Shown here: positions 12,486 to 47,074 of the stretch, piece by piece
Numbering within the stretch: position 1 is the first letter of the stretch
Layout: the number at the start of each line of letters is the position of its first letter
Notes under the pieces: generated by a model
The model's database searches: none
Told to the model about the DNA's origin: nothing
What the model saw: the letters and a program-made list of their open reading frames with translations, nothing else
Source: Patescibacteria group bacterium
GTDB lineage: Bacteria; Patescibacteriota; JAQUNI01
Direction of reading: 5' to 3'
NCBI GenBank assembly: GCA_028717685.1
Contig: JAQUNI010000004.1
Coordinates: forward strand, 8,599 to 72,598
DNA: 64,000 nucleotides
Made by a program: the position numbers and the translations under genes

Positions 12486-12652
12486 GAATTACGAAATTTT
12501 CATAGAATCATAAAACATTCCTCACCTTGACCTGCGGAAGGGTTTAATAAATGACTATTCTCCCACCCCCTCCATCTCCCCCTCGGGCAGGGGGAGAGCC
12601 GCTCCCACCCCTCCTTTCTCCCCTTCTGGCGGGGGAAGTGAGTTGCGTAATT
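12486..12652. repeat. GC-rich MITE family A, copy 1, with TIRs (GAATTACG...CGTAATT) and CTCCCCCTCGGGCAGGGGGAG hairpin core
   Basis: Shared modules with copies at 24.57, 26.7, 33.3, 42.9, 45.65, 46.9 kb. Intergenic between the histidine phosphatase and surE. Confidence 0.7.
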
Positions 12653-12702
12653 TAAGAACAGTTAATATTTTTTAATGAATTTTAGTGTTTCTTCTATAGT
12701 TA

Positions 12703-13506
12703 TTATAATTCAATAGTGAAATTTTTGAGTTTTAAACAGACATCTTCTTCTGAAAAGGTTGTTTGGCAAGGGGTGATGGAGATATATCCTTTTCTAATCG
12801 CGTTGCCGTCAAATTCCACACTTTTTTCTTTGCTCGCGACCGTGACTGCTGAAGGATGGATATAATAATGCTCTTTGTGATTAATATTGACAGAGCAAGA
12901 ATAAAAATCGGTTACCGAAGGCAAGGGTTTGGTAAATTTTACTTCGTTACTTTTTAAGAGCGGCAGATTGATATTCAATAATTCATAGCCCCAGAAATTA
13001 TTTTTCAAAACCAAATCAATAATCTTTTTTACTTTTTGTCCTGGGTACTCGAGATAGGATTCAAGATCCATTTTAAGATCGCCATTTTCATACCAACGTT
13101 CGGGCGGACAGTTCCAGCTTACTGCCAGCCCCTTTTTCGCTATTGGCAAATTTAGGGCGCGGAAGGCGGCGGCATAAGTGCCGGAGGACATTATGGCTCC
13201 GGTCACATTGGCTCCTAAATTAATCCCTGAAATCACTAAATCAAATATTTCTTTAAAATAATTCCAGGCAAATTCCACCGCGTCGCAAGGAGTGCCGTCA
13301 ACCCAAATCGCTTTTATACCATTGACCGTAGTTTCGCCCCATCGCACTTTTTGATCAAAGGTTAGCTTGCCTCCTACGCCGCTTTGCTGTTTTTTGGTGC
13401 CTGCTATCGTGAGTTTATATTGGTCTTTTAGAAAATGAACCAGAAGTTTCGTACCGATGGAATTATACCCGTCATCGCCGGTAATCAAGATGTTTTTAAT
13501 TTTCAT
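12703..13506 (-). CDS. surE: 5'/3'-nucleotidase SurE. Start at 13506 (MKIKNILITGDDG).
   Basis: 'ILITGDDGYNSIG' SurE N-terminal motif. The longer ORF to 13575 reads into a palindromic repeat and is likely artifactual. Confidence 0.75.
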   Translation of the reverse strand: MKIKNILITGDDGYNSIGTKLLVHFLKDQYKLTIAGTKKQQSGVGGKLTFDQKVRWGETTVNGIKAIWVDGTPCDAVEFAWNYFKEIFDLVISGINLGANVTGAIMSSGTYAAAFRALNLPIAKKGLAVSWNCPPERWYENGDLKMDLESYLEYPGQKVKKIIDLVLKNNFWGYELLNINLPLLKSNEVKFTKPLPSVTDFYSCSVNINHKEHYYIHPSAVTVASKEKSVEFDGNAIRKGYISITPCQTTFSEEDVCLKLKNFTIEL

Positions 13507-13657
13507 ATTGTCATTGCGAGGAGAGCCTTTAGCCAGATCCCTCGCTTCCGCTCGGGACAGGCTTCGCAATCTCATCGAGCTATATTATACAGATTTATGA
13601 GATTGTTTCGGTCGGCATTAGATGCCTCCTTCGTTAATAGGCGATACATTTCATAAC

Positions 13658-14089
13658 TTAAGGTTTAATAAGACTAAGGAATGATTTCGTGGTAGGTAGA
13701 AAATCAAAATTGGCAATTTCGGATTTTTTAATCCATTTCAAGTCATGGATTTTAGGATCATTAAGGTGTAGTTTGCCATTTACGAAATGGCAGTGGTAGG
13801 CGTGAAGCGTAATGTGCAAAATATAATCCTGATGTTCCCAAATGGCAGAGATGGGTTTTTTTAACTTTTTTAAAATTTTCACATTAAGCCCTGTCTCCTC
13901 CGCGATTTCCCGCAAAAGCGCCTGCCTTGATGTTTCGCCTGTTTCTATCTTGCCGCCGGGCACATCCCACTTTAGATGGGCTTTGGGCACTTCGGGATTA
14001 AACCGTTGGCTAATTAAAATCTCCCCTCTTTCATTTTCAATAATCCCAATCACACCGGTTATTTTCACGATTTGTTTTGAGGTTTTCAT
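13658..14089 (-). CDS. NUDIX hydrolase
   Basis: Nudix box 'GGKIETGETSRQALLREIAEETGL'. Confidence 0.75.
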   Translation of the reverse strand: MKTSKQIVKITGVIGIIENERGEILISQRFNPEVPKAHLKWDVPGGKIETGETSRQALLREIAEETGLNVKILKKLKKPISAIWEHQDYILHITLHAYHCHFVNGKLHLNDPKIHDLKWIKKSEIANFDFLPTTKSFLSLIKP

Positions 14090-14140
14090 ATGATTACTTC
14101 TTTGATTTGAGAAAAGTTTAGAGACACTTTCGGAGCAGAA

Positions 14141-15498: not shown

Positions 15499-17142
15499 TT
15501 ATTTAGCCTCAAAAATCAAAATCACATCCAGCCAAGAAGGCGCGCGCGGCGGCGCAGGCTCCTCAATTTCCATTAGACGAAAGTTAGCTTGTAATTTTTG
15601 GCGCAAGATTTCATTCAGGGGATTATCTGTTTTATAGAGTACCCAAATCTTGCGACCGGACACACTTTGCGTTTTTAGCTGCTGGACTAAATCTTCCGCC
15701 TCTTGCGCATATTTGTTTTCTTTCTTGAGCATATCCTTCAGATTTTTCCAACCAGTATGAATGCCCATCTCCGCGGGATAGTAAAACAAACTGAATTTTT
15801 TTTTGCCTTGATTCTCGCGGCTGAAATAATAATCAAAAGTGGCACCGGACAGGTCTGTGGCAATAACCATATCCTGATCACGTAAGCGGTTGAGTAAAGA
15901 GAGGCTTATGGTTTTGTCCGTGCTTTGATATTGGCGAATAAGATCTTGTTCTGCTACCACTTTTTTGGCAGCAAAGATTACAAGAGTAATGGTTAAAATC
16001 GCAAGCAGGAAACGGCTTCTGATTTGGGCAAAGAAATAAGCTAAGAGTAAAAGAAAGGCAGGCAAGACAATTATTTCATAGCGTCCCGCCACATAAATAG
16101 GTTTAAACTTTGAAACAGCGAAGGCCGCGATTAAGGGAAAAATAAAATATAGGACGAGACTGGTCCATACTACGGTTTTTAGCTGATGGTCGCGAGTAAG
16201 ATGCTTCTCGTCTAACTTCGGGCAGGATATTTGGAGTTCCCGCAGAAAAAATATATAAAAACCTGCAATAATCGCAAAAATAAGGTAAGGCCAAAAAACA
16301 CCGAAGGTGAAATATTTAAAACTTTGCCCTAAAATTTCAATTTTTACTTTACTTATCCAGGCATTTACTCCCATTTGGCTTTGATGGATGATGATTAGAA
16401 TATTCGGCACAATTAATAACAGGATCAGGCATATTGTTCCCAAGATTTTTTTAAAAGGCAAAGGATATTTTTTGAGACGAAAAATAAAAAGGCTTAAAAT
16501 TTGACTAGCCAGAATTAAAAAAATCCAAGGATGGGTATAGATGCCGGCAAGCGTGGAAAGAAGATAAAAAATGTAAGCGGAAATTTTATCCCTGCTCGCC
16601 GCCCTATGAGCTCGTGGAGCTTCACTTTCGCGCGTGATTTTCCAAAAAAAGTAAAAAGAGGCAAGGCCTAAAAAAGCAGCGAGAGTGTAGGGTCGAGTTT
16701 GGGCGCCAAACCAGAGCAGGAAATAGCTGGTGCTAGCGAGGATACTGGCCAGCAGGCCTGCTTTTGGACTTTGAAAAATTTCCTTGGCGACTTTAAAAAT
16801 GAACCCGATTAAAACCAAAGCCATACAGGCGGAGAAGCCGCGCAAAGCCGTCTCACTATTTCCCCAGATCAAACTCCAAATTTTCATTATATAGATGTAA
16901 AAAAGAGGGTGGCCATCCATAACTGCTCGGCTGTAAATTTGAGGAAAAGGCAGCGCGATAATTTTGGCTACCGCCGCTTCATCCAGCCAGAGAGCCCTTG
17001 CGCCGAGGTGGTCAAAAATAAAAAGCGCAGCCAGGACAAGGCAGGCGAGCAAGCCTAAAAGAGGCTTATTTTTTATTATTCTCAATTTTAAATCTTTCAC
17101 GCGGGAGGACAAATTGTTCAATAACTTTTTGATTTTGGGCAT
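15499..17142 (-). CDS. GT-C fold membrane glycosyltransferase (ArnT/PMT, GT39/GT83-like)
   Basis: Polytopic N-terminal membrane domain with a 'LWLDEAAVA' DE motif in the first loop, and a soluble C-terminal domain. Its first 77 nt overlap the upstream gene, so the start is uncertain. Confidence 0.55.
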   Translation of the reverse strand: MPKIKKLLNNLSSRVKDLKLRIIKNKPLLGLLACLVLAALFIFDHLGARALWLDEAAVAKIIALPFPQIYSRAVMDGHPLFYIYIMKIWSLIWGNSETALRGFSACMALVLIGFIFKVAKEIFQSPKAGLLASILASTSYFLLWFGAQTRPYTLAAFLGLASFYFFWKITRESEAPRAHRAASRDKISAYIFYLLSTLAGIYTHPWIFLILASQILSLFIFRLKKYPLPFKKILGTICLILLLIVPNILIIIHQSQMGVNAWISKVKIEILGQSFKYFTFGVFWPYLIFAIIAGFYIFFLRELQISCPKLDEKHLTRDHQLKTVVWTSLVLYFIFPLIAAFAVSKFKPIYVAGRYEIIVLPAFLLLLAYFFAQIRSRFLLAILTITLVIFAAKKVVAEQDLIRQYQSTDKTISLSLLNRLRDQDMVIATDLSGATFDYYFSRENQGKKKFSLFYYPAEMGIHTGWKNLKDMLKKENKYAQEAEDLVQQLKTQSVSGRKIWVLYKTDNPLNEILRQKLQANFRLMEIEEPAPPRAPSWLDVILIFEAK

Positions 17143-18766
17143 TGCGTTTTAAGAAAATAAGGGTGTAATCATCAACAAAGACTGGCGCCCAAGCAGGATC
17201 TTCAACGCGCTCGACTAAAAATTTTTGCGTCCAAGGAGTGAGGTCGTGATAAGCAAATACGATCGCGTTAAAGTTGTATTTTTGTTCTTGCGCTTGCCAG
17301 ATTTCTTCTTTTTCCTGCATAGGAATATAGACTTCTTTGAAGAAAGAAGCGGGATAAGCCTCTGGTCGGTTATCAACGAAGATACGTTCCCGCGGATAAA
17401 GGTGAAAGATTAAATAACTTCCAATATCGTAATTATTAAAAATAGGTCCTTTAATTTTTTCCTTTTGCAGAAATTCCGCCGCCGCGCTATTTCCTGGGGA
17501 AAGTCCTAAACGGACATTATAATTTATTTGGCATTTGGGGTCGGATAGAAAGAAAATCAAAATAAAAATAGCAGTGAGAACATATGCGATTTTAAAGGAC
17601 CAAGAATGAAATGAAATCCGAGAGGCAAGAATATTCTTTAAGTTAATCGCCAAGATAGGTAAAGTAAAAAGCCCAGAAAGCGTAAAATTGCGCAAAGCCC
17701 ACCAGCCCATAAAACTAAAAATCGCGGCAAGGCAGAAAAGGGGCAATGAAAATTTACCCTCCTTCGCCGAAAGCCACGGCTGTAAGCCCGTGGATATAGG
17801 CGAAGAGGGTACCCTTCCGTAGCTCCGAAGGAGCGAAGGAGGGTAGGCTTCGGAAGGGTTTCGTCGCTGAAAGATTAGTAAGAGAGCAAAGCTTAAAATA
17901 AGCAAGCCGAAGATGATTTCAAAGAGCAGGAGATTAGGATCTTGCAATCCGTATTTTTCTAAAAAAATCACGGATTTATTTTCTAAAATCTCATAGCCAT
18001 AATTTTGAAAAATTTTGAACGGATAGATCGCCCCTTTAGCAAAAAATGGGTTAATAAGGCTTGCAAGGCAAACCAAAATTAAGATGAGACCGATTTTTTT
18101 GATTTTTTGGGGGGAGAAAAAAACAAGCCTTTCTAATAAAAAAACAGCGATTAAAACCGGTCCTAGGAAAAAATAAATATGGGTGTTGACCCAAAGGATT
18201 TGGATGATCGGCAGGAGAAAAAGCCATTTAAAGGGAAGCCGACCATTTCGGTATTCCCAAAGCAGCCAAAAAAACAAACTTGCGAAAAGATAGGTGAAGA
18301 TTTCCGGCCGCGCTTCGCCGCGCTCCGCAATGAGGGGAAGGACTAAAAAAGAAACGATGCTCGCAAGTCCTAATCCCGCCTCTTTTTTAGTTAGAATGAA
18401 AAAGAGCGTGAAAACGATAAAGCTGGCAACAACATAGAAAAGATGTAGGCCAGTAAAACCCGTAAATTGCAAAACAAGGTAAAAGATTACCGCGCTGCCC
18501 CAATGGTGGTTTACAAAGGGGAAATCAGGATAAGTGTAAGAATAATAATTTTCAAAAAGATGTTGAAAATTGCCTTGCAGGATAAGCTCGCCATTTTTCA
18601 GGTGCCGCCCTAAGTCTGCCGTGGTTAAATCAATGGGGCGAATTAAAAAAAGAGAGTACCAAGTAAGCAAAAGAAATAAGACAAAAATAAATTTCTTTTT
18701 TTGAATAAAGAAATCTGTAATTTTGGGCATTGTTTTTGGACTTATATCTCTATCCCTATTGGGCAA
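17066..18766 (-). CDS. Polytopic membrane protein, probable GT-C-type glycosyltransferase. Contains an in-frame GC-rich palindromic insertion.
   Basis: 566 aa, more than 10 TM segments. Residues 'NPSEAYPPSLLRSYGRVPSSPISTGLQPWLSAKEG' are encoded by a GC-rich palindromic block (about 17755-17880) unlike the flanking AT-rich coding sequence. Confidence 0.5.
   Translation of the reverse strand: MPNRDRDISPKTMPKITDFFIQKKKFIFVLFLLLTWYSLFLIRPIDLTTADLGRHLKNGELILQGNFQHLFENYYSYTYPDFPFVNHHWGSAVIFYLVLQFTGFTGLHLFYVVASFIVFTLFFILTKKEAGLGLASIVSFLVLPLIAERGEARPEIFTYLFASLFFWLLWEYRNGRLPFKWLFLLPIIQILWVNTHIYFFLGPVLIAVFLLERLVFFSPQKIKKIGLILILVCLASLINPFFAKGAIYPFKIFQNYGYEILENKSVIFLEKYGLQDPNLLLFEIIFGLLILSFALLLIFQRRNPSEAYPPSLLRSYGRVPSSPISTGLQPWLSAKEGKFSLPLFCLAAIFSFMGWWALRNFTLSGLFTLPILAINLKNILASRISFHSWSFKIAYVLTAIFILIFFLSDPKCQINYNVRLGLSPGNSAAAEFLQKEKIKGPIFNNYDIGSYLIFHLYPRERIFVDNRPEAYPASFFKEVYIPMQEKEEIWQAQEQKYNFNAIVFAYHDLTPWTQKFLVERVEDPAWAPVFVDDYTLIFLKRNAQNQKVIEQFVLPRERFKIENNKK
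17755..17880. repeat. GC-rich palindromic element (family C-like, cttcgccgaa / ggcttcgg / cccttccg motifs) inserted in-frame within a CDS
   Basis: Nested inverted repeats 'ccacggctgtaagcccgtgg' and 'cccttccg...cggaaggg'. Composition contrasts with the surrounding gene. Related motifs occur at 21.4 kb and 43.1-43.5 kb. Confidence 0.5.
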
Positions 18767-19440: not shown

Positions 19441-19458
19441 GAAATAATTTTCATAAAA

Positions 19459-20151: not shown

Positions 20152-20259
20152 GAAATTGTTAATAAAATGAGATTACAGATGGTCTATATCAGTGGTCCTG
20201 GAAAGGAACAAAAGAATAGACCCCTCCCAAACCTCCCCTTAGCAGGGGAGGAAAATAGT

Positions 20260-24522: not shown

Positions 24523-24572
24523 ATTTATTTAGCTTTCTGCGAAATTTACAGAAAGCTTTTTTATTTCACCTT

Positions 24573-24658
24573 GAATTACGAAATGCATTGTCTATTAGCG
24601 AGGGATCTGACTAAAAAAGCCCTCCTCACTAATAGATGAAAAGGGATTTTTATAATTC
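24573..24658. repeat. Short variant of MITE family A (TIR GAATTACG...TATAATTC) lacking the GC core
   Basis: 'gaattacgaaatgcattgtctattagcgagg' is near-identical to the left arm of the 46.88 kb copy. Internal palindrome ctattagcgagg...cctcctcactaatag. Confidence 0.55.
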
Positions 24659-24674
24659 AAGTAAGTTAGAATAT

Positions 24675-25050: not shown

Positions 25051-25094
25051 TGGCTCCATAAGCCTCTCATTTCGCTCGGGGACTATGGAGCCAA
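25051..25094. repeat. Hairpin repeat family B (GGCTCCAYAG ... GGGACTATGGAGCC), copy 1
   Basis: Same inverted-repeat arms recur at 26566-26595, 26656-26696 and 51739-51778. Confidence 0.6.
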
Positions 25095-26564: not shown

Positions 26565-26850
26565 ATTGTTTGTTGGCTCCATAGTGGCGTTAGCCCTATG
26601 GAGCCAGGATGCAAGCCGTGAAAGTATGATCAGACTTTAATAACGTTTTGCATTGCGGCTCCACAGCCCTCATTTTGAGTTCGGGACTATGGAGCCAACA
26701 GCTCCCACCCCCTCCATCTCCCCCTCGGGCAGGGGGAGAGCCGCTCCCACCCCCTCTTGTCTCCCCCTTCCTCCTTCGTTTTACTTCCGGCGTAGCGGGT
26801 CCGCTACGCCAGAGCGTCAGCGAGGCGAGCAGGGGGAGTGTAATTAAGTT
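26565..26850. repeat. Composite repeat block: two family B hairpins followed by a MITE family A copy with an extended GC-rich tail ending GGGGGAGTGTAATTAAG
   Basis: ggctccatag/ctatggagcc (26566-26595), ggctccacag/gactatggagcc (26656-26696), then ctcccaccccctccatctccccctcgggcagggggag and the right TIR gtaatta. Several overlapping ORFs here are spurious. Confidence 0.65.
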
Positions 26851-33235: not shown

Positions 33236-33341
33236 CATACGATGACTATTCTCCCACCCCCTCCCCGCCCGCCTCGCCTGAAGCGAAGCGATGGCGGGCA
33301 GGCATCTCCCCCTCGGGCAGGGGGAGTGAGTTCTGTAATTC
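33236..33341. repeat. MITE family A copy with the inserted module CCGCCCGCCTCGCCTGAAGCGAAGCGATGGCGGGCAGG
   Basis: gatgactattctcccaccccctcc...ctccccctcgggcagggggagtgagttctgtaatt. The same inserted module occurs at 44.9, 47.0 and 58.0 kb. Confidence 0.65.
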
Positions 33342-35743: not shown

Positions 35744-36052
35744 CTACTTTATCATTACTAAAAGCATTTTAAATCTTTTTAGCGCTTTTAAGGAATGGGG
35801 TTTATGGGCAGGAAGTTTAATTATTTGCCCTTCAATAAGCGTGTATGCTGTTTTTTCAATTTTAATTTGCGCTTCACCGTCTATAATATAAGCCAGCACA
35901 TTAAACGGGGCTGTGTGTTCGCTTAGCCCTTGACCTGCGCCAAAAGCAAAAATTGTTACTGTGCCATTTTTTGTTTTTAAAATTTCTTTGCTCACTACCG
36001 AACCTTGTTGATATTCAATATGTTCTTTCAATGTGATTATTTCTTTTTGCAT
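35744..36052 (-). CDS. Cupin-domain protein
   Basis: 102 aa. 'GQGLSEHTAPFNVLAYIIDGEA' cupin motif. Confidence 0.55.
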   Translation of the reverse strand: MQKEIITLKEHIEYQQGSVVSKEILKTKNGTVTIFAFGAGQGLSEHTAPFNVLAYIIDGEAQIKIEKTAYTLIEGQIIKLPAHKPHSLKALKRFKMLLVMIK

Positions 36053-36082
36053 AATTTTTTTACAATTTTCTTATTGGGTAAT

Positions 36083-36400
36083 TTAAAAAAGTTTGGTGTT
36101 ATAAATCTCGCCAATATTGAGCGACTTAAATAAATCATCATTCAAGATTTTTTCTATTTTGGCCAACAATGTTTTATCATTAGAACTTATTAGTTGGGAT
36201 ACTTCTTTGCTTTGGTTGTCTATAGCATATATTTTCAGACTATCCGTGTTTAATTCGGCCTTTTCTAAAAATATTTTATTCAAACCAGTTTCAAACTTGT
36301 CCATATCCGAGAAACCTCCTCCAAAGCTATTAGAAAAATTTATAAGTCCTGCACGTTTTAAATCATATAAAGTTTTTGTTTTAGAAGATTGTAATTCCAT
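36083..36400 (-). CDS. Hypothetical protein (105 aa), first gene of the AT-rich island
   Basis: ORF only. Lys/Asn/Ile-rich composition. Confidence 0.3.
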   Translation of the reverse strand: MELQSSKTKTLYDLKRAGLINFSNSFGGGFSDMDKFETGLNKIFLEKAELNTDSLKIYAIDNQSKEVSQLISSNDKTLLAKIEKILNDDLFKSLNIGEIYNTKLF

Positions 36401-36472
36401 ATTTTTTAAGCTCTTTGAGCCGATCTATAATTGGTTGTTCGACCAATGAATTTTCGTTAATTTTAATCATAT

Positions 36473-37732
36473 TTATACCAATTCTAGTTCATCTTTATTC
36501 GGAGGAATAAATCCCTTTGGCAAATCTTTTAGAATATTTAAATGACTATAAATTCTATACCTTATTACTTGTGGTATTCTATGCCATTTTTCATAAAGTA
36601 GGTCATTTTCTTTAATATATTCTAAATAAAAGCTCTCAAAAATTTTCTTAAATTTTTTTTCACCTAAAAAAGAAATAGCAACTAATTCGGCTATTCCAGC
36701 CGTAAAAAAACATATTGTATAAAGGTTTCTTTCCAAAAATAAAAGCAATCCACCTTGCTTTAATTTGGCGAGAGTCTCAATTCCCTGATAATTACTCCAA
36801 ACTCTAAATTTATACAAAATATCTAGAATGGTAAAGATATCTTTATTATTTGCTTTTGAAAAAAAAGTTCTTTTAAGATCATTACGATATTCATTTTCTA
36901 ATTGATATATATTTTTATTGCCTCTCGGACATTGAGCATATTTAAACCGCCACTCTCTTTTATTAATATCTAAAAAACTTTTTTTGATCAATCCTTTTTT
37001 ATAACAAATATTAAATGGAAATTTTAATATTATTTTTGAATATTTAGATAGCTGATGTCTATTAAAATATATCGATGACTTTCTATGTTCTTCGGTTTTT
37101 AAGCTTGGATTCTCGGTGAAAACAAAGGAAGTAAAATAAGAATAAATAGAATAATAATATTTGATGATTTTCCAAGAAGGAAATAATGAAATTCCAGCAT
37201 CATCATCTATATAATCCAAACTACTGCCAATATTAAAATCCTGTGAAAAGGGATAACCTCCTGCTATTTCATTATACCAGCCTTGCATTAAATGAAACTT
37301 AAATTTAGTCTCTGAAAAATTTTTACCGACTAAAACATTTTTAAATTTTAAATGATTATAATCCAAATCTTTAATAAATAATTGATATAATGTGTCGATT
37401 TTATATCTTCTGCTTTTCATCATTTCACGATCAGCAAATCTCATTTTCAACATCCAAGCAAATCTATCTACAATATCATGATATGATAGATATCCTTCCA
37501 ATTCTGGGTGATATTCATATAAGAAGTGTTTCGGTCCACTTAATATTTCTTTTTGGTATTCTTTATTTGACGAAAGAAGGTTTAATCTCGGGTATTGATA
37601 TGTAGGGATTAAATATCTTTTATCCTTCCCTAATGTATAATCTAATAAATCTGATTTTATTAGTTGTTTTAAATAGCTTTCTTTAAGATTAAATTTCTCG
37701 GAAATAAATTTTAACGTTTTTAGTTCTGTCAT
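36473..37732 (-). CDS. Hypothetical protein (419 aa) with an N-terminal excisionase/AlpA-like helix-turn-helix
   Basis: N-terminal 'LKFISEKFNLKESYLKQLIKSDLLDYTLGKDKRYLI' resembles HTH_17/Xis DNA-binding domains. The rest is uncharacterized. Very AT-rich codon usage. Confidence 0.4.
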   Translation of the reverse strand: MTELKTLKFISEKFNLKESYLKQLIKSDLLDYTLGKDKRYLIPTYQYPRLNLLSSNKEYQKEILSGPKHFLYEYHPELEGYLSYHDIVDRFAWMLKMRFADREMMKSRRYKIDTLYQLFIKDLDYNHLKFKNVLVGKNFSETKFKFHLMQGWYNEIAGGYPFSQDFNIGSSLDYIDDDAGISLFPSWKIIKYYYSIYSYFTSFVFTENPSLKTEEHRKSSIYFNRHQLSKYSKIILKFPFNICYKKGLIKKSFLDINKREWRFKYAQCPRGNKNIYQLENEYRNDLKRTFFSKANNKDIFTILDILYKFRVWSNYQGIETLAKLKQGGLLLFLERNLYTICFFTAGIAELVAISFLGEKKFKKIFESFYLEYIKENDLLYEKWHRIPQVIRYRIYSHLNILKDLPKGFIPPNKDELELV

Positions 37733-37866
37733 TTAAATAAAATGTCTTAGGGATTAACTTTATTTTTTTCACTCATTAACTTTGGTAAAAGTAGATCGCA
37801 AAGAAATGATAGAGTTTATCCGCCGCCGCCGAATTTCGCGCCAGCAAAAATGGCGTGTTGCCAGGA

Positions 37867-38307
37867 TTATTTTTTATAAACAACAAAATAAGGCAACTTA
37901 TCTAACCCAATATAATTAAACATCCAAAGTTCTCGGCCTGATTTTTTTATTGTAGTAAATCTTTTTCTCAAATTTACTTTTGGAATGAATGGATAAAATC
38001 TAATTTCTTGGCGTTTACCACCTTGCCCGTTCCATTTGAAATTTACTATTAATGGTGGGGTAATAAATCCTGATTTCAAAACTTTATCAATAATTTCCCA
38101 TCCCGCTCCAAAGATGATGGACTTTGGTTTGCATAGGTTTGTTTTTATTTGAGCGCGAAACGAACAAGCTGTACATTGCACGTCGTACAGAGGGTAGCTC
38201 TCCGGCAATAACATCAATTTTTTCTTACAATTTGGGCAAGATACTAAATTGACAACCTCCTGCTCTCCAAGATTGCCAGCATATTTGTTTCCGTGATTAT
38301 TTTTCAT
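37867..38307 (-). CDS. Small Zn-ribbon protein (about 147 aa), possible nuclease or accessory component of the R-M island
   Basis: 'CPNCKKK...CTAC' ribbon followed by 'DVQ...AQIK'. Immediately downstream of the beta-class methyltransferase. Start chosen at the MKNNHG Met to avoid a 50-nt overlap. Confidence 0.3.
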   Translation of the reverse strand: MKNNHGNKYAGNLGEQEVVNLVSCPNCKKKLMLLPESYPLYDVQCTACSFRAQIKTNLCKPKSIIFGAGWEIIDKVLKSGFITPPLIVNFKWNGQGGKRQEIRFYPFIPKVNLRKRFTTIKKSGRELWMFNYIGLDKLPYFVVYKK

Positions 38308-38311
38308 AATT

Positions 38312-39088
38312 CTATGTAATAGTTTCCATCCTATGTTTAGCCATTTTAGAATACTTGGCATTTTTTTCTATCCCTATCCACTTTCTGCCTAATTTTTTTG
38401 CAACTACAGCTGTGGTGCCGCTACCTAAAAATGGGTCTAAAACCAGATCGCCTTTATTTGAGGACGCAACGATGATCCTTTTTAGCATCTCTTCCGGTTT
38501 CTGTGTTGGGTGTAATGCTCTACCATCCTTTCCATGTAATCTTTCTTTTCCTTGTACTAAAGGCAATGACCAAACATCCCTCATTTGTTTGAGTGCCCCA
38601 TTTTTCTGTGTTTCAGGGTTTATTTTTTTTAATTCGACATAGTTAAAAATCCATTTTTTACCCTTAACCGCCCAAACGACAAATTCTGTTGAGTGAGTAA
38701 AAACTCTTTTTGTCATATTGGGCATCGCGTTTGTTTTTTGCCAAACAATGACATTATTAATTTTGAAATCGAACTGTTTCAGTACAATGATCACCTCTGC
38801 AAGATTGTGGTAGGTGCAAGAAATATAGATTGAGCCATTATCTTTCAATATTTTGTGGCAAGCACCAATCCATTTTTTCGTAAACTGTATATATTCTGGG
38901 GCGGTCATTTTATCCCATTCTTCGTTCACCATATACCAATCACCGCCAGTTTTATTTCCTTCCCATTTAAGACCATTGCCCGAAAGATTGTAGGGCGGAT
39001 CGGCAAAAATCAACTCAACTGACTTTTTATCAATTTTTTCATTCAATATTTTTATGCAATCGTCAGTGTAAATAGTGTTGAGCTTCAT
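38312..39088 (-). CDS. DNA methyltransferase, beta-class (N6-adenine or N4-cytosine)
   Basis: Motif IV 'FADPPYN' precedes motif I 'DPFLGSGTT' (beta permutation). Start [11 protein letters not shown]. Confidence 0.7.
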
Positions 39089-39090
39089 AA

Positions 39091-40923
39091 TTATTGCTTT
39101 GCTAAAATAGATTTTTGCCATTCAGTAATTGTTTCCGGTATTTGCTCAATCCACTTCTCGGAATGAGCAACACGATTCGTTAGACTGAGGATTTGTTCAT
39201 AAAGATTTAATAACTCATCGTGCGTAAATCGTTTTCCTTGTTTTCTGATTTCTAAAAGACTTTCAAGTAGTCTGACAAATTGCGCAATAGAGAGGGGAAC
39301 AATTTTTTGTGCAGTTCCTTTATAGCCGTATTTTATCGCCATCCAAAATGTCTCAACGGTATCTTGATGTAGTCGTGGAGCAATGAATAGGCAATAAGCT
39401 GTCTTGTCGGTATGGGATTCTTCAAAGTCGCGCACATGACGCATAACAGGTTGTCCCTCGTTGTACCACTGTGAACGATTCGTCAGCATTGTAACCTCGC
39501 ATACGGAATTAAACTGTTCATAAAAGCATTCTATATCCGGCTTATTGGCTGGCGCAGTAAAAGTAGGCTCGTTGTCATCTCCAACCGGATAGTTTGGTTT
39601 AATCTCTAGTGCGTCGTTAAGAGCGTTGAGTGCAAGCGTTGAGAGCCTTTCAAGTTCAATACTCTTTTTATTGTCTGACTGATAAATACCCCTAAGTGCG
39701 TTAATATATTCTTGAATTTTAGCGACATCTTGCGATTCAAAATGAGTTTCAAGCTCTTGTAGTTTTCTACGGTAACCTCGCAATTGCTCGATATACTCTT
39801 TTAGTTGATCCTCAATTAAGCTCTCAATCTTTTTAAAATGAAAGGGCGGTGCTGTTATTATTTTTGATTTCAGATCGATTACATATTCTTGCACATCCCG
39901 ACTCAATTTTTCTGCAATTTTTCCTAACTCCGATTTTGTTTCCCACGGCAAAACAGGTTGCTCAATATCGGCAAGATATTCTATGTATTTGTCGGCATTT
40001 TCGTATGCTAGAGGAGCGGCATTATCCGTAGAGAGTAATTTATCAATCTCGATAGACCTTCTTGGTTCCAAATTAACATAAAACCCGCCGCCCCGAATAT
40101 GTAGATATCTGGTTAATCTGAAATATCGAATCGCGTTGTCGCCATAATCCTTAAGGTTGTTAAGAAGTTTTTTAATTTCACTGCCTTTGTTTGTTCTTAA
40201 AAATGTTTTGGAAAAATTATTTCCAAACTTTTTTTTAAATTGCTTTCTTCTCTTGTCGTCTTTTTGTGAACGCAGCCCAACTCGATATTCAATTAGTTTT
40301 TCCGCTTGCTTTTTGATATTTTTGTAATCTATAAGCGTTGGTGCAAATAAAGAGAATTCATCTTTACTTATTCCGATAGGGTTATTTCCTAATTTTACCC
40401 ATCTCTTGTTCACTTCGTTTATAAGATGTAATGCTCCTATAAATGGTTTGATAGCAAATCCGTCATTTTCTGAAAATGTTGTACTTGCTGGGTTAGGAAG
40501 TTGCCATTTCAAAAAGTGTATAAAGAACAATTTACCCAAATCATAATTTTCAGAAAGAAGATATTCGCCTAGTGGGGTAATCTTAACGCCTTCGACTGAA
40601 TTTTTGGCTATACACAAACCCATTTTATTAAGTGGCGCAACAGAATTTCTGCCACGCATTGCCGGATCTTCGTAACCTTGTACATTAAAAATTTCTTTTG
40701 CAACAGAAAATGGCATTTCTGTTTCAATATCATCAAAATATTCTTGTTGTTCTCTGGTTAAATTAGTTGGTTTGTAAAACCTATTTTGAATGAGGAGAAT
40801 TTGGTATTTAATTTGATTCTCTGAATTAAAGGGTTGTCCCTCTAGTTCTTTCAGAACGCGCAAGAAATCCCGTAATCTATCGGGGTTTCTCACTGTTGTT
40901 GATATTGACCAAGGTTTTTTCAT
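39091..40923 (-). CDS. Putative Type IIS restriction endonuclease, AlwI/Nt.BstNBI family
   Basis: 610 aa. N-terminus '[23 protein letters not shown]' follows the W-x-V/I-S...R-x-P-E/D pattern I recall for the Nt.BstNBI/AlwI N-terminal region. Flanked by two methyltransferases in the same orientation. Confidence 0.5.
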
Positions 40924-40928
40924 AATTG

Positions 40929-42743
40929 TTATTTTATTACTTTACAATAAAAGATTCGTTCTGTGTGTCCATCAGTATCGCTTTTGCCTGTTGTAAATGC
41001 TTTATAATCCCTTTCAAAAATATCAACATTGCCACGAGTTTTTAATATATTTATAATTCGCTTATCACTAATGCGAGCATTTGATCTTCCGTCCTTAGAT
41101 TCGCCGGTGTTATTATAAGAAACCAAAATATGTTTACAGTTTGCGTTCGAAATTAAATCAGCAAATGCCCTCGATGCTGACTGTAGACAGTAATCACTTT
41201 TAATATGTGACCTATCCATCTTTTTTGCTTTGCCATACACTGATGGTTTTTCCCAAGTAGCAAGGTTTTCTAGAAGGTGATAGGCGTCAGAATACTGGCG
41301 AGAATTATAAGGTGGATCAATATATAAAACGTCACACCTTATTTTTTTGATAAGCTGATTTGCGTCTTTTTTATATATTTCATTATTTGAGTTATTTTCT
41401 GGCTCAAAATCCGGAACCAAAAGACGTAGTGGTTGGATTGTGTCTAGTTTTTTTCTGTATGCATCATAGTGGCCAACTGTATTTGCCACCTTATCAACTG
41501 CGTATAGTAATGTAGTAATCAAAACAGCTCTCTCATTATCGCTTTTTGCAATCTCGTCAATTTTTTCTCTGACAGCGCCGATTTTGCGAGCGTTCTCTAA
41601 GGTGAAAAAGGTATTGCCGAAATGTTCAGAAAAATAATTGTCATTGTGCACTTCTAAGTTATTGAGCAGCTCTATTTTCTTTTCTATTTCCTTAAAATCA
41701 ATTTTCGAAGTTCCCAAAAAAGATTTTAATGGTAGATAATTACTTACTAAAAAGTCGTTGGCAATAACTTTTATATCTTTTTCATTAAATCGTTCACCAA
41801 CAACACCAGTACCCGCAAAAATATCACAGAACACACCGAAGCCGTTGCATTTTTCGTTGACAATATCCTCAATAAGACCGAGCAGTTTATATTTATTTCC
41901 TAAAAATCTTCTATTTTGCAGCTGGAAACGCCCCGACTTAATTCTACTTTCAGGGTAAAAATATACCTTATGTATTTTTTTTATTTCTGGGGTATAAGTT
42001 GGTTGTGCAGTTTCTAATAGATCGAAAAGGGAATTTTGTACACCATCAGAAATATAATGCGTTACTTTACTATCCGAGCTTTGTATTTCAGAAAAAAAAC
42101 TGTGAGTGTCATTTTCACTAACAATAATAAAATCAATAACATTCACACCCATTATTTTACCTGCTTCGAGAATTTTATTCACGACTTCCATATCTTGTTT
42201 ACTGGGGGTAACATCTCCTGATGGGTGATTATGTAACAAAATGATCCCAGCCGCTCGTAACTCGACGGCGGGGCCAAAAATTTCTCGTGGATGAATAATG
42301 CTTTTATCTAATATACCGATAGATATAATTTCTTTTTTCAGTAGCGCATTTCTTGCGTTGAGATATAGACATACCAAATACTCTTTTTTCTTGTCTCGTA
42401 TGTCGGAAGTTAAAGAAATCGCATCTTGGGCGGATAAAACAATGTTATCTTTTGGTTCCAATTCTTCATAAAATCTTTTTATTAACGCCAGAGCAGAAAC
42501 AATTTGTAGGGCTTTTGCCTCTCCAATTCCAGAAATTTTCAAAAGATCATCAACTATTATGTCTAAAAATTTATTTCCGAATTTTCTGATTATCTGTTCG
42601 GAAAGTTGTTTAACATTTTTTCCCTTAATTCCGCTTCCAATAAGAATAGCCAAAAGCTCGCTTTTAGAAAGAGCATCTGGACCTTTTTCTAAAAACCTTT
42701 CGCGTGGCCTATTAATTTTTGGAATGTCTTTAAGCTTTCCCAT
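40929..42743 (-). CDS. Fusion protein: RadC-like JAB/MPN domain (N-terminal) plus Dam-like alpha-class N6-adenine DNA methyltransferase (C-terminal)
   Basis: RadC N-terminal HhH 'ELLAILIGSGIKG' and JAB motif 'IILLHNHPSGD'. Then Dam-family motifs 'FLGNKYKLL', 'FCDIFAGTG', 'VLYIDPPYN'. Confidence 0.7.
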   Translation of the reverse strand: MGKLKDIPKINRPRERFLEKGPDALSKSELLAILIGSGIKGKNVKQLSEQIIRKFGNKFLDIIVDDLLKISGIGEAKALQIVSALALIKRFYEELEPKDNIVLSAQDAISLTSDIRDKKKEYLVCLYLNARNALLKKEIISIGILDKSIIHPREIFGPAVELRAAGIILLHNHPSGDVTPSKQDMEVVNKILEAGKIMGVNVIDFIIVSENDTHSFFSEIQSSDSKVTHYISDGVQNSLFDLLETAQPTYTPEIKKIHKVYFYPESRIKSGRFQLQNRRFLGNKYKLLGLIEDIVNEKCNGFGVFCDIFAGTGVVGERFNEKDIKVIANDFLVSNYLPLKSFLGTSKIDFKEIEKKIELLNNLEVHNDNYFSEHFGNTFFTLENARKIGAVREKIDEIAKSDNERAVLITTLLYAVDKVANTVGHYDAYRKKLDTIQPLRLLVPDFEPENNSNNEIYKKDANQLIKKIRCDVLYIDPPYNSRQYSDAYHLLENLATWEKPSVYGKAKKMDRSHIKSDYCLQSASRAFADLISNANCKHILVSYNNTGESKDGRSNARISDKRIINILKTRGNVDIFERDYKAFTTGKSDTDGHTERIFYCKVIK

Positions 42744-42769
42744 TTTTATTTCATTAAACCATCCCTCAA

Positions 42770-42915
42770 GCCCTGTAGTGAGACTTCAGTCCCGAGGAAC
42801 ATTCAGTCCCGAGGGATTCTCTACTACGGGGCAAGAGCCCTCCTACGCTCTTTGGGCTACGGAGTATTTTTCTCCCACCCCCTCCATCTCCCCCTCGGGC
42901 AGGGGGAGTGTAATT
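42770..42915. repeat. MITE family A copy with a tandem ttcagtcccgagg duplication in the left arm
   Basis: ccctgtagtgagacttcagtcccgaggaacattcagtcccgaggg...ctcccaccccctccatctccccctcgggcagggggagtgtaattc. Confidence 0.6.
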
Positions 42916-43118
42916 CATCTTATAATTTCGGCACTTCGTCCCTTCTTCGTCGCTTCGCTCCTTAAGAGTTCCTCAGTGTCTTTAATTTTCATCTAACTAT
43001 ATAGTAGGTGGTCAAAGATAATACCCTTCTACTTCGCTACGCTCAGTATCAGGGACTTCTTCTTTTTTATATAGAGCCGGAGGCACTGATGAGCCTCCGT
43101 CTCAAAGGAGGCGAAGAA

Positions 43119-43132
43119 GTGCTGGGGAGGCA
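43119..43132. repeat. 14-nt exact direct repeat of the tRNA-Gln 3' end (att-like site)
   Basis: gctggggaggcagg is identical to 43505-43518, i.e. tRNA positions 61-74 in reverse complement. Brackets the GIY-YIG gene. Confidence 0.55.
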
Positions 43133-43177
43133 GGTGTCCTTCGCCTGCGGCTTCGGAGCACCTAATTACCTCCAAAA

Positions 43178-43438
43178 CTATTCCTTCTTCAAGGCTTCGG
43201 GAATAAGTCTTTTATATGTAAATGCTTTACCTGAACCAGTTTTTAAATATTTTTCAAACAACTTTGCCTTTTTAATTGTTGAAAATCCACAATACCAAAC
43301 AAGTTGCCAAGGAATAAAAGGTTTAGTTGATTTAGATAAGCCTTGGTTGTGTTCAGTATATCTTTTTTTGAGATTGTTTGTATAGCCAAAATAAAGCTTT
43401 TTTGATTTTAGACTATAAAGAATATAGCAATAATACAT
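43178..43438 (-). CDS. GIY-YIG nuclease domain protein (YhbQ/UPF0213-like)
   Basis: 'YYCYILYS...LYFGYTNNLKKRYTEHN' GIY-YIG motifs, 86 aa. Confidence 0.7.
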   Translation of the reverse strand: MYYCYILYSLKSKKLYFGYTNNLKKRYTEHNQGLSKSTKPFIPWQLVWYCGFSTIKKAKLFEKYLKTGSGKAFTYKRLIPEALKKE

Positions 43439-44883: not shown

Positions 44884-44928
44884 ACCCGCCCGCCTCGCCT
44901 GAAGCGAAGCGATGGCGGGTAGGCATTT
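44884..44928. repeat. Partial MITE module (CCGCCCGCCTCGCCTGAAGCGAAGCGATGGCGGG) embedded in an AT-rich tract
   Basis: The same 35-nt module as in the 33.27 kb and 46.99 kb copies. Confidence 0.55.
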
Positions 44929-44947
44929 TGCATTTTACATTTTACAC

Positions 44948-45628
44948 TTATATCACGTACTGTCCGTGCTCCTGATCGCGGATTACGGCTCCTTTTTCCA
45001 GAGTAATCACCCTTTTATTTAAGGCATTGACCACTTCTTTGTCATGGCTCGCGAGAACGACAGTTGTTCCCAATTCGTTGATTTTTAAGAGTAATTTAAT
45101 AATATCCCAAGTCGCGAAGGTGTCCAAGTTGCCTGTCGGCTCGTCGGCAATCAAAAGCTCCGGTTCGTGAATCAGGGCGCGGGCGATCGCGATCCTTTGC
45201 TGTTCGCCGCCGGAAAGCTGGACTGGAAAACGGTCGGTTTTATCTTTTAAGCCCACAATATCCAGCATCTGCGGCACGCATTCATTAATTTCTTCTCTGG
45301 GGGTGCCCGAAACCTCCATCGCGAAAGCAAGATTCTCCGCGGCGGTTTTTTTGGGGAGGAGGCGGTAATTTTGAAAAACCACGCCGACATTACGGCGAAA
45401 GCGCGGCAGTTCGCGGTCTTTTAATTCGTTGACGCGCCACTCACCAACGACAATACTGCCCTCGCTTGGTTTTTCCTCTCCAATCATGAGCTTAATCAGA
45501 GTGGACTTGCCGGCGCCCGAAGCGCCAACCACGGAAACGAACTCCCCTTTTTTAATAAAAAGATTAACATGGTCCAAAGCCACTGTATCATGGTTGTAGA
45601 TTTTGGTAACGTTTTTGAAGTCGATCAT
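44948..45628 (-). CDS. ftsE: Cell-division ATP-binding protein FtsE
   Basis: Walker A 'GASGAGKST', ABC signature 'LSGGEQQR', Walker B 'LIADEPTGNLD'. Confidence 0.85.
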   Translation of the reverse strand: MIDFKNVTKIYNHDTVALDHVNLFIKKGEFVSVVGASGAGKSTLIKLMIGEEKPSEGSIVVGEWRVNELKDRELPRFRRNVGVVFQNYRLLPKKTAAENLAFAMEVSGTPREEINECVPQMLDIVGLKDKTDRFPVQLSGGEQQRIAIARALIHEPELLIADEPTGNLDTFATWDIIKLLLKINELGTTVVLASHDKEVVNALNKRVITLEKGAVIRDQEHGQYVI

Positions 45629-45648
45629 AGTTTGGAAGCAGGAATGAT

Positions 45649-45717
45649 GAATTACGATGACTATTCTCCCTCCCCCTCCACCTCCCCCTCGGGCAGGGGG
45701 AGTGAGTTTCCTAATTC
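45649..45717. repeat. Compact MITE family A copy (69 bp) occupying the prfB-ftsE spacer
   Basis: gaattacgatgactattctccctccccctccacctccccctcgggcagggggagtgagtttcctaattc. Its right end overlaps the prfB TAG stop. Confidence 0.65.
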
Positions 45718-46809
45718 ACGATTCGGCTCTTCAGCGCCATTTGAATAAAATTATCAATTTCACCATCCAAAACTTTGTCGGTATTTTTTACTTCATATTT
45801 GGTGCGGTGATCTTTAACCATTTTATAGGGATGAAGCACATAAGAACGGATTTGATTGCCCCAAGCGGCAGAAATATGTTCGCCGCGCGCTTCCAGAGTT
45901 TCTTTGTCCTTTTGTTCGCCGTAAAGCTTTTCCAGCTTCCCCCTTAAAATTTTCAGCGCCGTTTCTTTGTTTTGCAGCTGCGAACGTTCGTTTTGGCACT
46001 GCACTACCAAGCCAGTAGGCAGATGTTTAATTCTTATCGCGGAGCTCGTTTTATTGACCGATTGACCGCCGGCGCCGGCGGAACGAAAGGTTTCTATTTT
46101 TAATTCTTCATCTTGAATTTTAACATCTTTGGCTGATATTTCGGGTAAAACTTCAACCAAAGCAAAGGAAGTATGGCGCGCTTTATCCGCGTCAAAAGGA
46201 GAAAGCCGCACTAAACGGTGGACGCCGGCTTCGTTTTTTAAATAACCATAAGCGTAGTGCCCCATTGCTTCCAGGGTGACGCTTTTAATCCCCGCTTCGC
46301 CTCCTTCGGATTTATCCAAAATTTTGGCTCGCCAACCTTTCCTTTCAGAGTAGCGCAAATACATCCTTAAGAGCATTTCTGCCCAGTCTTGCGCGTCTAC
46401 GCCGCCCGCTCCCGCGTAAATAGACAAAATCGCGTTGCCAGCATCATATTTGCCAGCCAAAAGAGTTTTAAGTTTCAAAGCGTCTAAATGTTTATCGCAT
46501 TTTTTATACTTTTGCGCGAATTCTGTCGCGAGTTCTTTGTCATTTTCTTCTGCCAAGAGTTCGGCTAAAGTCTCTAATTTTCCCAAATATTTTTTAATTT
46601 CCTCCCATTCCTTGAATTTTTCTTTCTGCTGCGTCAGCTTCTGGATTGTCCTTTGTGCCTCTTCTTTATTTTGCCAGAAGCCAGATGCGGCGACTTCTTT
46701 TTCTAAATTTTTGATTCTTCTCTCTAACTTCTGTATTTCAAAGCCGGTCCGCTATCTCGCGGCTTTTATTTTCTAAAATAGCTATTTTTTCATTGCGCGT
46801 TTCGTTCAT
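45711..46809 (-). CDS. prfB: Peptide chain release factor 2 with programmed +1 ribosomal frameshift
   Basis: Frame 0 (46809..46741) gives MNETRNEKIAILENKSREIADRL and ends in CTT-TGA. The +1 frame from 46739 continues EIQKLERRIKNLEKE...SPF...GGQ to 45711. SPF and GGQ motifs mark RF2. Confidence 0.85.
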
Positions 46810-46881
46810 AATATTAGATATTATAACATAATTTTTTGCCTGCGCGCCAGCCCTTTTTTATGGAGTGATCTTTAGACCTTA

Positions 46882-47074
46882 AATTACGAAATTCATTTTT
46901 GTCTATTAGCGAGGAATTCTCCTCCCCTTGACCTGCGGGAGGTTTGGGAGGGGTCTAATAGATGAATATTCTCCCTCCCCCTCCCCGCCCGCCTCGCCTG
47001 AAGCGAAGCGATGGCGGGCAGGCATCTCCCCCTTCCGCCCAAGGCGGACAGGCAGGGCAGGGGGAGTGTAATCA
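46882..47074. repeat. MITE family A copy (full length, with the CGATGGCGGGCAGG module)
   Basis: aaattacgaaattcatttttgtctattagcgagg...ctccccttgacctgcggg...ccgcccgcctcgcctgaagcgaagcgatggcgggcagg...cagggggagtgtaatc. Confidence 0.65.

Follow-up and report, generated by a model that had tools for sequence, protein, structure and literature searches.

The window analysed here, that is, the whole stretch of 64,000 nucleotides (nt) from a Patescibacteria group bacterium (contig JAQUNI010000004.1, positions 8,599 to 72,598), carries between its genes a set of short repeats that are rich in guanine and cytosine (GC) and have a hairpin at their centre. An original prediction, made from the letters of the window, took them for one abundant family of MITEs (transposable elements of miniature size that end in inverted repeats) with common terminal inverted repeats (TIRs). 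The copies listed at these sites are a mosaic of four pieces and not one element: the A unit, which is a box followed by a hairpin; B, a 39-nt palindromic hairpin CCCGCCCGCC..GGCGGGCAGG at 33264, 44885 and 46984; C, a second triplex module (CCTCCCCTTGACCTGCGGGAGG) at 12520 and 46921, with a solo copy at 20219-20251; and a TIR scaffold. A units occur alone or nested with B and C, some of them within a true TIR element, and the scaffold can exist without any A unit (24.6 kb). Judging from its sequence, the core is a new Patescibacteria-wide variant of the intrastrand triplex motif repeats, and the MITE label would fit the lineage-specific outer scaffold only.

That the repeats themselves are genuine is clear from their counts. 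The 21-mer CTCCCCCTCGGGCAGGGGGAG has 5 exact matches in the window (12576, 26718, 33306, 42888 and 45682), each of them on the + strand, whereas 100 shuffles gave 0, and the box CTCCCACCCCCTC precedes every one of them. With up to 2 mismatches allowed, the box itself has 8 matches in the window, 8/8 on the + strand, against 0.47 expected; the 3 further boxes belong to variant units, with a diverged hairpin (12618-12638) or with large loop inserts (26761-26838 and 47026-47066). The repeat blocks reach 66-72% GC in a window that ranges from 27 to 47% per kb, and every copy in the window is intergenic, between genes with Pfam domains. The G strand of 8/8 units is the minus strand of the window, which is also the sense strand of 52 of the 56 real genes; the GC skew of this minus strand fits leading-strand sequence, i.e. 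the lagging-strand template. Three examples of spurious open reading frames (ORFs) that were examined, 810-1223, 42559-42996 and 43008-43385, had no Pfam match. The copies and fragments, all given on the + strand, are the following.

941-981, +: C-like fragment of weak similarity, CCCCTT, a 27-nt insert, then AAGGGGGAGGG.
12486-12660, +: composite copy with weak outer inverted ends (12487-12496/12643-12652), a C-type module (12520-12541) and two A units; the first has its box at 12560-12572, turn CAT and hairpin at 12576-12596, followed by the linker AGCCG, and the second, diverged unit has its box at 12602-12614 and hairpin CTCCCCTTCTGGCGGGGGAAG at 12618-12638.
20219-20251, +: solo C-type triplex module, ACCCCTCC-caaa-CCTCCCCT-tagc-AGGGGAGG, with its G strand on the minus strand (from the strict triplex-motif scan and the sequence).
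24570-24661, +: short TIR element without an A unit, outer arms CTTGAATTACGAAA/TTTTATAATTCAAG, inner arms TCTATTAGCGAGG/CCTCACTAATAGA.
26702-26848, +: tandem pair of A units, then a TGTAATTAAG tail; unit 1, box 26702-26714, hairpin 26718-26738; unit 2, box 26744-26756, hairpin arms 26761-26768/26830-26838 around a 61-nt loop insert (26769-26829).
33251-33341, +: A unit with a B hairpin (33264-33302) in its turn, canonical hairpin at 33306-33326, tail TGAGTTCTGTAATTC.
42872-42916, +: minimal A unit (box, CAT, hairpin 42888-42908), then TGTAATTC.
44885-44923, +: B hairpin of 39 nt on its own between ftsX and ftsE, almost a perfect palindrome.
45649-45716, +: A unit in the 82-nt prfB-ftsE spacer, box 45666-45678, hairpin 45682-45702, flanks GAATTACG.. 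and ..CCTAATTC.
46878-47110, +: full TIR element of 233 nt, left TIR CTTAAATTACGAAAT + TGTCTATTAGCGAGG, right TIR ATTTCGTAATCCAAG; inside it a C module at 46921-46953 (G strand on the + strand), an A-unit box at 46971-46983, B at 46984-47022 in the turn, and A-unit hairpin arms at 47026-47033/47058-47066 around a 24-nt loop insert (47034-47057).
57986-58060, +: B-like fragments adjoining tRNA-Thr, CGATGGCGGG x2 and GCCTCGCCTGAA.

Against this inventory, the count of at least 8 copies of one family in the original prediction holds as far as the repeats go and fails as to their unity, since the 24.6 kb copy has TIRs and no hairpin core and the 44.9 kb copy is a solo B, predicted to fold as single-stranded DNA with -15.3 kcal/mol and z = -3.9 (ViennaRNA). 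The two outlying fragments at 0.95 and 58.0 kb, counted with the family, are only loosely related to it, the one C-like and the other B-like. The optional modules, on the other hand, were seen correctly: B is present at 33264, 44885 and 46984, and CCTCCCCTTGACCTGCGGGAGG at 12520 and 46921. Common TIRs were borne out in part. A repeat finder returned real inverted termini at 24570-24583/24648-24661 and 46878-46892/47096-47110, weak ones at 12487-12496/12643-12652, and none of at least 10 nt at the 45.65 kb copy; the TIR 8-mer GAATTACG alone is at chance level, with 4 matches in the window against 2.0 expected. The copies at 26.7, 33.3 and 42.9 kb have the right-hand ..GTAATT(C) end only, as read directly, the repeat finder not having been applied to them.

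The anatomy of the A unit was established from an exact 21-mer scan of one genome per species, which gave at least 120 stretches in about 50 assemblies; layout statistics come from 126 instances and triad statistics from 121 distinct copies, in both cases among the matches listed. The conserved unit of 37-42 nt consists of CTCCCACCCCCTC (13 nt), a turn of 3 or 5 nt, the 21-nt hairpin CTCCCCCT-cgggc-AGGGGGAG and a weak ARA. Turns of 3 nt occur in 64 copies and turns of 5 nt in 32; 3 copies have 4 nt and 1 has 6 nt, while a further 21 have an expanded turn of 12-61 nt that holds an extra hairpin; the box is absent in 5 of the 126 instances. Information content falls to background directly left of the box (at most 0.15 bit) and 3 bases right of the hairpin. 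Because the box and hairpin alone are conserved across genomes and the information ends at their edges, the hairpin core is not defined by TIRs. Read on the G strand, the unit is a pyrimidine arm CTCCCCCT, gcccg, a purine arm AGGGGGAG, the turn, then GAGGGGGT and GGGAG, which makes CTCTCCCCCTGCCCGAGGGGGAGCTGGAGGGGGTGGGAG in its 37-nt form. Here GAGGGGGT is the mirror image of the purine arm AGGGGGAG, and neither its direct nor its inverted copy. Two points were missed by the original prediction, the solo C module at 20219-20251 and this box that mirrors the purine stem arm, in the manner of the triplex motifs of the BoxC/PIT type.

This layout satisfies a published definition. In the class II purine type of the ITxF definition (PMC4666352), a pyrimidine arm is followed by a complementary purine arm and by a third block, antiparallel to it, that obeys the triads G.GC, A.AT and T.AT, with a stem of 6-15 nt, at most 1 mismatch and loops of 1-6 nt. 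The A unit fits as CTCCCCCT/AGGGGGAG/GAGGGGGT, with a stem of 8 nt, a first loop of 5 nt and a second loop of mostly 3-5 nt; the 21 copies with turns of 12-61 nt fall outside the loop limit. All 8 of 8 triads are valid purine-motif triads in 113 of the 121 distinct copies. The only frequent polymorphisms of the box lie at position 6 (A 108/T 12) and position 12 (T 114/A 4); both positions face A.T pairs, and the A<->T swaps are exactly those that the triad code permits. Joint change is seen in the variant at L011, where the box and both arms are altered to CCCCCCC/CCCCCCC/GGGGGGG, and secondary inserts are confined to the hairpin loop or the turn, i.e. the two loops of the proposed fold. Other hairpin families with pyrimidine and purine arms at the same loci are accompanied downstream by a box that is the mirror of the arm 72 times and its direct copy 10 times, with 0 in the upstream control; examples are the arm GAGGAGGGG with the box GGGGTGGTG and the arm AAGGAGGGG with the box GGGGAGGTT. 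A strict scan for triplex motifs rich in G and C returned 5 loci in the window (12565, 20220, 26707, 42877 and 45671), with the G strand on the minus strand in all of them, and 0 loci in 100 dinucleotide shuffles.

The 'hairpin core' would thus supply the Watson-Crick part in an intrastrand triplex motif, rich in G and C, of class II purine type. The restriction of box polymorphism to A and T at A-facing triads, together with the confinement of inserts to loops, suggests that the three-segment fold itself may be under selection. Since purine-motif triplexes do not form in RNA (PMC4666352), the A/T pattern of the box would further argue that it reflects DNA and not RNA.

Among the matches listed, the carriers are nearly all Patescibacteria metagenome-assembled genomes (MAGs), from Doudna-, Andersen-, Magasanik-, Uhr-, Falkow-, Buchanan-, Kaiser-, Cerri- and Portnoybacteria. 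Some matches lie in TPA bins labelled Gammaproteobacteria or Saccharibacteria, labels that are unconfirmed, and three matches in Kitasatospora come without the box and seem due to chance in DNA of high GC. Full A units were also seen in other bins without a Patescibacteria label: L014 and L084 (Bacteroidaceae MAG), L097 (Nitrospinota MAG), and L076 and L081 (labelled Bdellovibrionales); these could be due to bin contamination, mislabelling or horizontal transfer. The TIR element was found in the window's own Doudnabacteria lineage only (TIR search of the listed loci; L015 and L115 included), and in that lineage the units are embedded in or adjoin a TIR element of 100-230 nt. A phage vector was considered and rejected: 2.9 million viral contigs contain neither the exact core nor the B hairpin, and where the box pattern does match, once, it lies in a hairpin-free tail-fibre gene rich in Gly. 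In the literature we found no paper with this sequence or on Patescibacteria MITEs.

The statement that all copies are intergenic and GC-rich is right for the window and does not extend beyond it: about 70% of the listed copies elsewhere lie in-frame inside genes. Between 78 and 96 of about 121 listed copies are inside ORFs (78 host peptides are listed), and 84 of 121 stand in a frame that is stop-free for at least 150 nt on both sides, to be read beside 68% when positions in these loci are drawn at random. Genic copies are found in either orientation (53 vs 43) and in 5 of the 6 reading frames, where they encode SPPARGG.., LPLPEGE.., PTPS.SPSGRGR, SHPL.LPLGQGE or LPPP..PPRAGGE; the frame that encodes SPCPRGSWRGWE is used once only. 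The unit survives in genes because the frames used contain no stop codon and the reading frame runs on through it. Host proteins include CysRS, MnmA, PheT, IleRS-like enzymes, LeuRS, SMC, Tgt, Fpg and a PD-(D/E)XK nuclease. CysRS and MnmA align to solved homologue structures before and after the unit, and have 10-11 additional residues where the unit lies.

Orthologues show the same pattern. In the WecB/TagA glycosyltransferases of two Doudnabacteria (L060 and L067) the unit sits in different loops, each protein being empty at the other's site, and across 60 homologues the same two loops hold differing GC-module peptides or none. Fpg orthologues (L030/L098) carry the unit at one shared loop in opposite orientations. 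Orthologous inserts change by indels that keep the frame (+9 and +42 nt in L005/L063) and by compensating changes (L064/L106). So the unit would be translated and not spliced, and tolerated in surface loops. No nucleotide-precise empty site was found for a genic A unit; filled and empty pairs at the protein level are L060/L067, L006/L071 and the WecB/TagA family, and the inserted length of the 3-nt-turn subfamily would be 37 nt plus either 2 or 5. Triplex-type motifs that live in-frame in genes appear to be a new behaviour for such motifs.

Two further in-frame features were seen in genes of the window. The linker of a PyrK-PyrD fusion (9933-11783, minus strand) holds at 10825-10923 an in-frame insert of 99 nt (33 codons) with inverted ends ACCCCGTTA..TAACGGGGT, which is missing to the nucleotide in L013. 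At 17755-17859, a 105-nt GC-rich double palindrome with a 13-base-pair stem TACCCTCCTTCGC/GCGAAGGAGGGTA encodes NPSEAYPPSLLRSYGRVPSSPISTGLQPWLSAKEG in-frame within the ORF of a 566-residue membrane protein (17066-18766, minus strand).

Comparison with close relatives indicates that the repeats are biologically active on evolutionary time scales. The loci L013, L115 and L121 (Candidatus Doudnabacteria isolate SO_2017_SWC_9) are syntenic with the window, and L013 is 88.5% identical to it over its 8 kb, which places the window in a Doudnabacteria genome akin to this isolate. The L013 orthologue of the 12.5 kb copy has an extra 39-nt B, placed exactly between the box and CAT; the B at window position 33264 has the same placement in the opposite orientation. 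The solo B at 44885 is missing to the nucleotide in L122/L123, where the empty site reads caaaatg|taaaatg, so that the insert is 39 nt with no target duplication, and the B insert of L013 likewise has none. At L115 1132-1299 lies a 168-nt TIR element with A and C modules that is missing to the nucleotide at window 27907, where the empty site is CCTTA|ATCATATG and a possible duplication is at most 1 nt. The TIR element at 46878-47110 is not present at that locus in L121 or L122. At 45.65 kb, L121 keeps the GAATTAGGAA flank and has AT-rich sequence in place of the unit; the GAATTAGGAA part of the supposed TIR of that copy is therefore ancestral flank.

Gene content varies at the same modules, with two differences bracketed by them. 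L115 carries at 2676-3404 (minus strand) an extra ORF of 242 residues without a Pfam match, between two copies of the TIR element, where the window has repeat modules only (26568-26744). L121 (reverse complement) carries at 599-2330 a cassette of 1.7 kb that contains a single long ORF. On either side of the cassette stands a variant A unit, the two having the duplicated segment CTCCCCCTTCCTCCTTCGTTTCACTTCGGCGGACAGG in common; the cassette is absent from the window (42885), which has one unit at 42872. In the regions compared, the 37-42-nt repeat family accounts for most structural differences between two genomes of about 88% identity. The original description of a modular, apparently active non-autonomous element is hence apt in that the family is modular and non-coding, turns over rapidly and includes a bona fide TIR element (the 168-nt copy of L115), and inapt for the core, which TIRs do not define. 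No target-site duplication came to light: for k = 2-5, at all offsets, in 120 copies, none rose above the shuffled maximum. Nor was an autonomous transposase partner sharing the TIR found in window ORFs of at least 120 residues or beside the TIR matches in the listed loci. A sequencing or assembly artefact was ruled out by copies in the assemblies of many groups, by the divergence of orthologues and by the open reading frames that are kept. One metagenomic contig ends exactly within an A unit (L125 4809-4845), and A units are suggested to break short-read assemblies.

Overall, we favour, with a probability of about 60%, an unstable or mobile triplex-motif repeat that is nested in a lineage-specific MITE. 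The G strand would fold into the hairpin while it is single-stranded in replication or transcription, and its third segment would run back along the purine arm in G.GC, A.AT and T.AT triads. Such a fold may stall polymerases and lead to slippage, template switching and repair, which could explain the local instability, i.e. the indels and the gain and loss of gene cassettes. Spread and loss of the unit would both take place at replication forks or gaps, while it is folded as a single strand of DNA, and a new copy would be a folded single strand joined into a gap by some trans-acting enzyme or by host repair; proposed in this way, insertion without duplication and the preference for the loops of other units would both follow. 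Single-strand insertion as the specific step is offered tentatively, as possible and less probable than not. More doubtful, in our estimate, is that this is a new kind of mobile DNA, recognised through a self-folding triplex-hairpin of single-stranded DNA, with no partner-encoded transposase and no target duplication, and kept stop-free by selection.

Several findings weigh against the favoured reading of an unstable or mobile triplex-motif repeat. The 'empty' sites at 45.65 and 46.9 kb are replacements by other sequence and not simple gaps. No transposase domain was found in the window ORFs (Pfam, essentially all ORFs of at least 120 residues), and no enzyme, excision product or donor was found; the lone IS200-type TnpA in a relative (L034) has an unrelated end hairpin, and the flanks of the units have no conserved target, unlike those of IS200/IS605. 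The case for the triplex fold is made from symmetry in the sequence, ViennaRNA predicting the hairpin only, and the canonical arm AGGGGGAG cannot separate the mirror from the direct reading (24 vs 23). For TM_ECO of E. coli, a triplex was not detected in vivo (PMC4666352). The exact-match search favours identical and perhaps young copies. In an unbiased sample of 366 kb around ftsE from 67 metagenomic contigs, the unit occurs in close relatives of the window only, so its density is lineage-specific.

The rival closest to the original prediction is a classical MITE, in which the whole GC-rich block would derive from a DDE transposon with TIRs GAATTACG..CGTAATTC and a transposase elsewhere, the hairpin being a passenger. 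It can point to real inverted repeats (about 15 nt outer and 13 nt inner) at 24.6 and 46.9 kb, L015 and L115, to the 168-nt L115 copy that is missing to the nucleotide in the window, and to the intergenic position of all window copies. However, box and hairpin units without TIRs occur in about 50 other assemblies among the matches listed, also inside genes, whereas the TIR is limited to one lineage; no clean target duplication appears, either at the filled/empty pair (CCTTA|ATCATATG) or statistically; the 45.65 kb copy lacks inverted termini of at least 10 nt and those at 26.7, 33.3 and 42.9 kb have one ..GTAATT(C) end only; and there is no transposase in the window, nor do the TIR matches in the listed loci, which do not cover whole genomes, ever flank one. 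We therefore regard a classical MITE as unlikely. A REP/REPIN-like or IS200/IS605-derived element, whose hairpin would be recognised as single-stranded DNA by an HUH tyrosine transposase (RAYT/TnpA), one per genome, would account for the missing target duplication and the strand bias: the unit is hairpin-based, has no target-site duplication and has one orientation in 8/8 window copies, and REPINs likewise cluster and nest (PMC3116915). A close relative does encode an IS200/IS605-type TnpA (L034 8-451, minus strand; YHVIWVTKYR.., HVHL, YIQRQ) with an upstream hairpin CCGACGTAGTCGG, but this LE hairpin of the sole TnpA found is unrelated to the unit. No conserved 5' tetranucleotide or flanking target is present, about 1.2 Mb of carrier DNA, scanned by motif, contained no RAYT-like ORF, and some 70% of the listed copies are genic, unlike REPs. 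Hence such an origin seems rather improbable.

The two remaining rivals dispense with mobility or with selfish spread. Units might arise in place by slippage or fold-back synthesis at GC-rich tracts, or spread solely by homologous recombination after DNA uptake, by a drive like that of uptake sequences, and the turn hairpins, which differ in sequence among copies and look locally grown, the small indels of orthologous inserts and the many 'empty' sites that are replacements would agree with this. Identical 37-nt units with sharp boundaries in unrelated genes of many classes do not, and the same is true of identical 39-nt B copies at unrelated sites in both orientations, which leaves a non-mobile origin very improbable. 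Least probable of all, to our mind, is a cis element that serves the host in RNA, such as a stabiliser of mRNA 3' ends, a terminator or a small structured RNA, kept by selection. Intergenic listed copies between co-directional genes do favour one orientation to transcription (14 vs 4, with the window copies all in one), and compensatory stem changes are seen in L011 and L082. Yet genic copies are translated and stand in either orientation (53/43), the hairpin is not followed by a U/T run, and no Rfam family matches, only tRNAs reaching the gathering score and weak matches to miRNAs and packaging signals being noise. Presence and absence vary between close relatives at the same operon junctions. 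Moreover, purine-motif triplexes are absent in RNA, and in E. coli PIT/TM repeats showed no activity as promoters or terminators (PMC4666352).

If the more doubtful reading of a new kind of mobile DNA is true, the unit would insert into DNA that is single-stranded for a time, be it in genes, in spacers or in other units' loops. Patescibacteria have tiny genomes and few recognised mobile elements, and a stop-free, frame-preserving unit could colonise the essential genes of such streamlined genomes. It would drive innovation in protein loops and the gain and loss of gene cassettes; loops of 13-14 residues are added by it to CysRS, MnmA, PheT, SMC, Tgt and Fpg. In practice, the units create spurious ORFs, break assemblies (L125) and can mislead protein alignments.

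Some other features of the window were recorded beside the family. A second intergenic hairpin family, TGGCTCCATAG..CTATGGAGCCA, lies at 25051-25093, 26574-26606, 26657-26696 and about 51736-51769, and is unrelated in sequence to A, B and C. A further repeat family, ..TGTCATTGCGAGGAG..CGACGAAGCAATCTC.., is intergenic at 13504-13646 and is also found in L124 and L127, downstream/upstream of ftsE; it occurs in spacers of several relatives, and the window and L013 differ in it. In release factor 2 (prfB, 45711-46586), the ORF covers the PCRF domain only from profile position 51 onwards, which puts the N-terminal part further upstream, to about 46800, in a different frame; the usual programmed frameshift may account for it. 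Positions 36000-42743 form a low-GC island (27% GC at 36-38 kb) beside a restriction-modification cluster, whose members are as follows.

37867-38361: DpnI-like ORF.
38312-39121: N6/N4 methylase.
39091-40923: AlwI-family endonuclease.
40929-42743: RadC-Dam methylase fusion, unmatched in L121.

Among known systems, the RPE of Rickettsia resemble the A unit in being palindromic selfish repeats that lie in-frame in unrelated, often essential genes and add a peptide in tolerated regions; their transposition machinery is not known (PMC10969869). They are Rickettsia-only, measure about 100-150 bp, are AT-richer and encode one conserved peptide in one frame, whereas the A unit has 37-42 nt (about a third of the size), uses five of six frames and shows triplex-type symmetry. 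REP, BIME and REPIN-RAYT systems are likewise short GC-rich hairpin repeats that cluster and nest without target duplications (PMC3116915). By contrast, REPs are extragenic, have a conserved 5' tetranucleotide of GTAG type and stand on either side of a RAYT gene; for the A unit none of these traits was found. The small dispersed repeats (SDRs) of cyanobacteria (Elhai et al. 2008, a study cited in PMC3116915) are reportedly hairpin-type repeats of 21-27 nt nested in MITE-like hosts, with a mobilising mechanism that is said not to be known, and we know of no report of their in-frame spread in genes. The A unit is like them in being very small, hairpin-type and nested in MITE-like sequence, and differs in sequence, as far as their description sets them apart. 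The TIR copies of 92-233 nt (24.6 and 46.9 kb, L115) are like MITEs such as Nezha, Correia and ERIC (PMC10969869) in being small, non-coding and polymorphic between relatives; they differ in that no target duplication or partner insertion sequence was found and that what is widely conserved is the internal 37-nt module and not the TIRs.

The closest likeness of layout is with the BoxC/PIT/TM_ECO repeats of E. coli and other Proteobacteria, to which related G/C-rich motifs in cyanobacteria may be added (Holder et al. 2015, PMC4666352); these triplex motif repeats were also treated by Hoyne and Maher 2000, as cited in PMC4666352. TM_ECO follows the pattern CCCTCNCCC N3-6 GGGNGAGGG N3 GGGNGAGGG with a 37-nt consensus, and its single strand forms a stable triplex in vitro (PMC4666352). 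In E. coli MG1655 it is always intergenic and without strand bias; its copies are near-identical with variable loops and have no link to a transposon, phage or plasmid, and its loci are more rearranged than controls, which has been linked to instability (PMC4666352). The TM_ECO pattern itself has 0 matches in the window. The arms of the A unit differ, its stem has 8 nt instead of 9, GGGAG/CTCCC is added and the host is Patescibacteria; A units are in-frame genic in about 70% of the listed copies and of one orientation in 8/8 window copies, whereas BoxC is intergenic and unbiased; and A units sit within a TIR element and have hairpins nested in them. What they have in common with BoxC is a C-rich arm, a loop of 3-6 nt, a G-rich arm, a loop of about 3 nt and a mirror G-rich arm in about 37 nt, near-identical copies with loops less conserved than stems, no known tie to a transposon, phage or plasmid, and carrier loci unusually rearranged among close relatives. 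The little-studied intrastrand-triplex repeats of the BoxC/PIT type would thereby be carried from Proteobacteria to the candidate phyla radiation.

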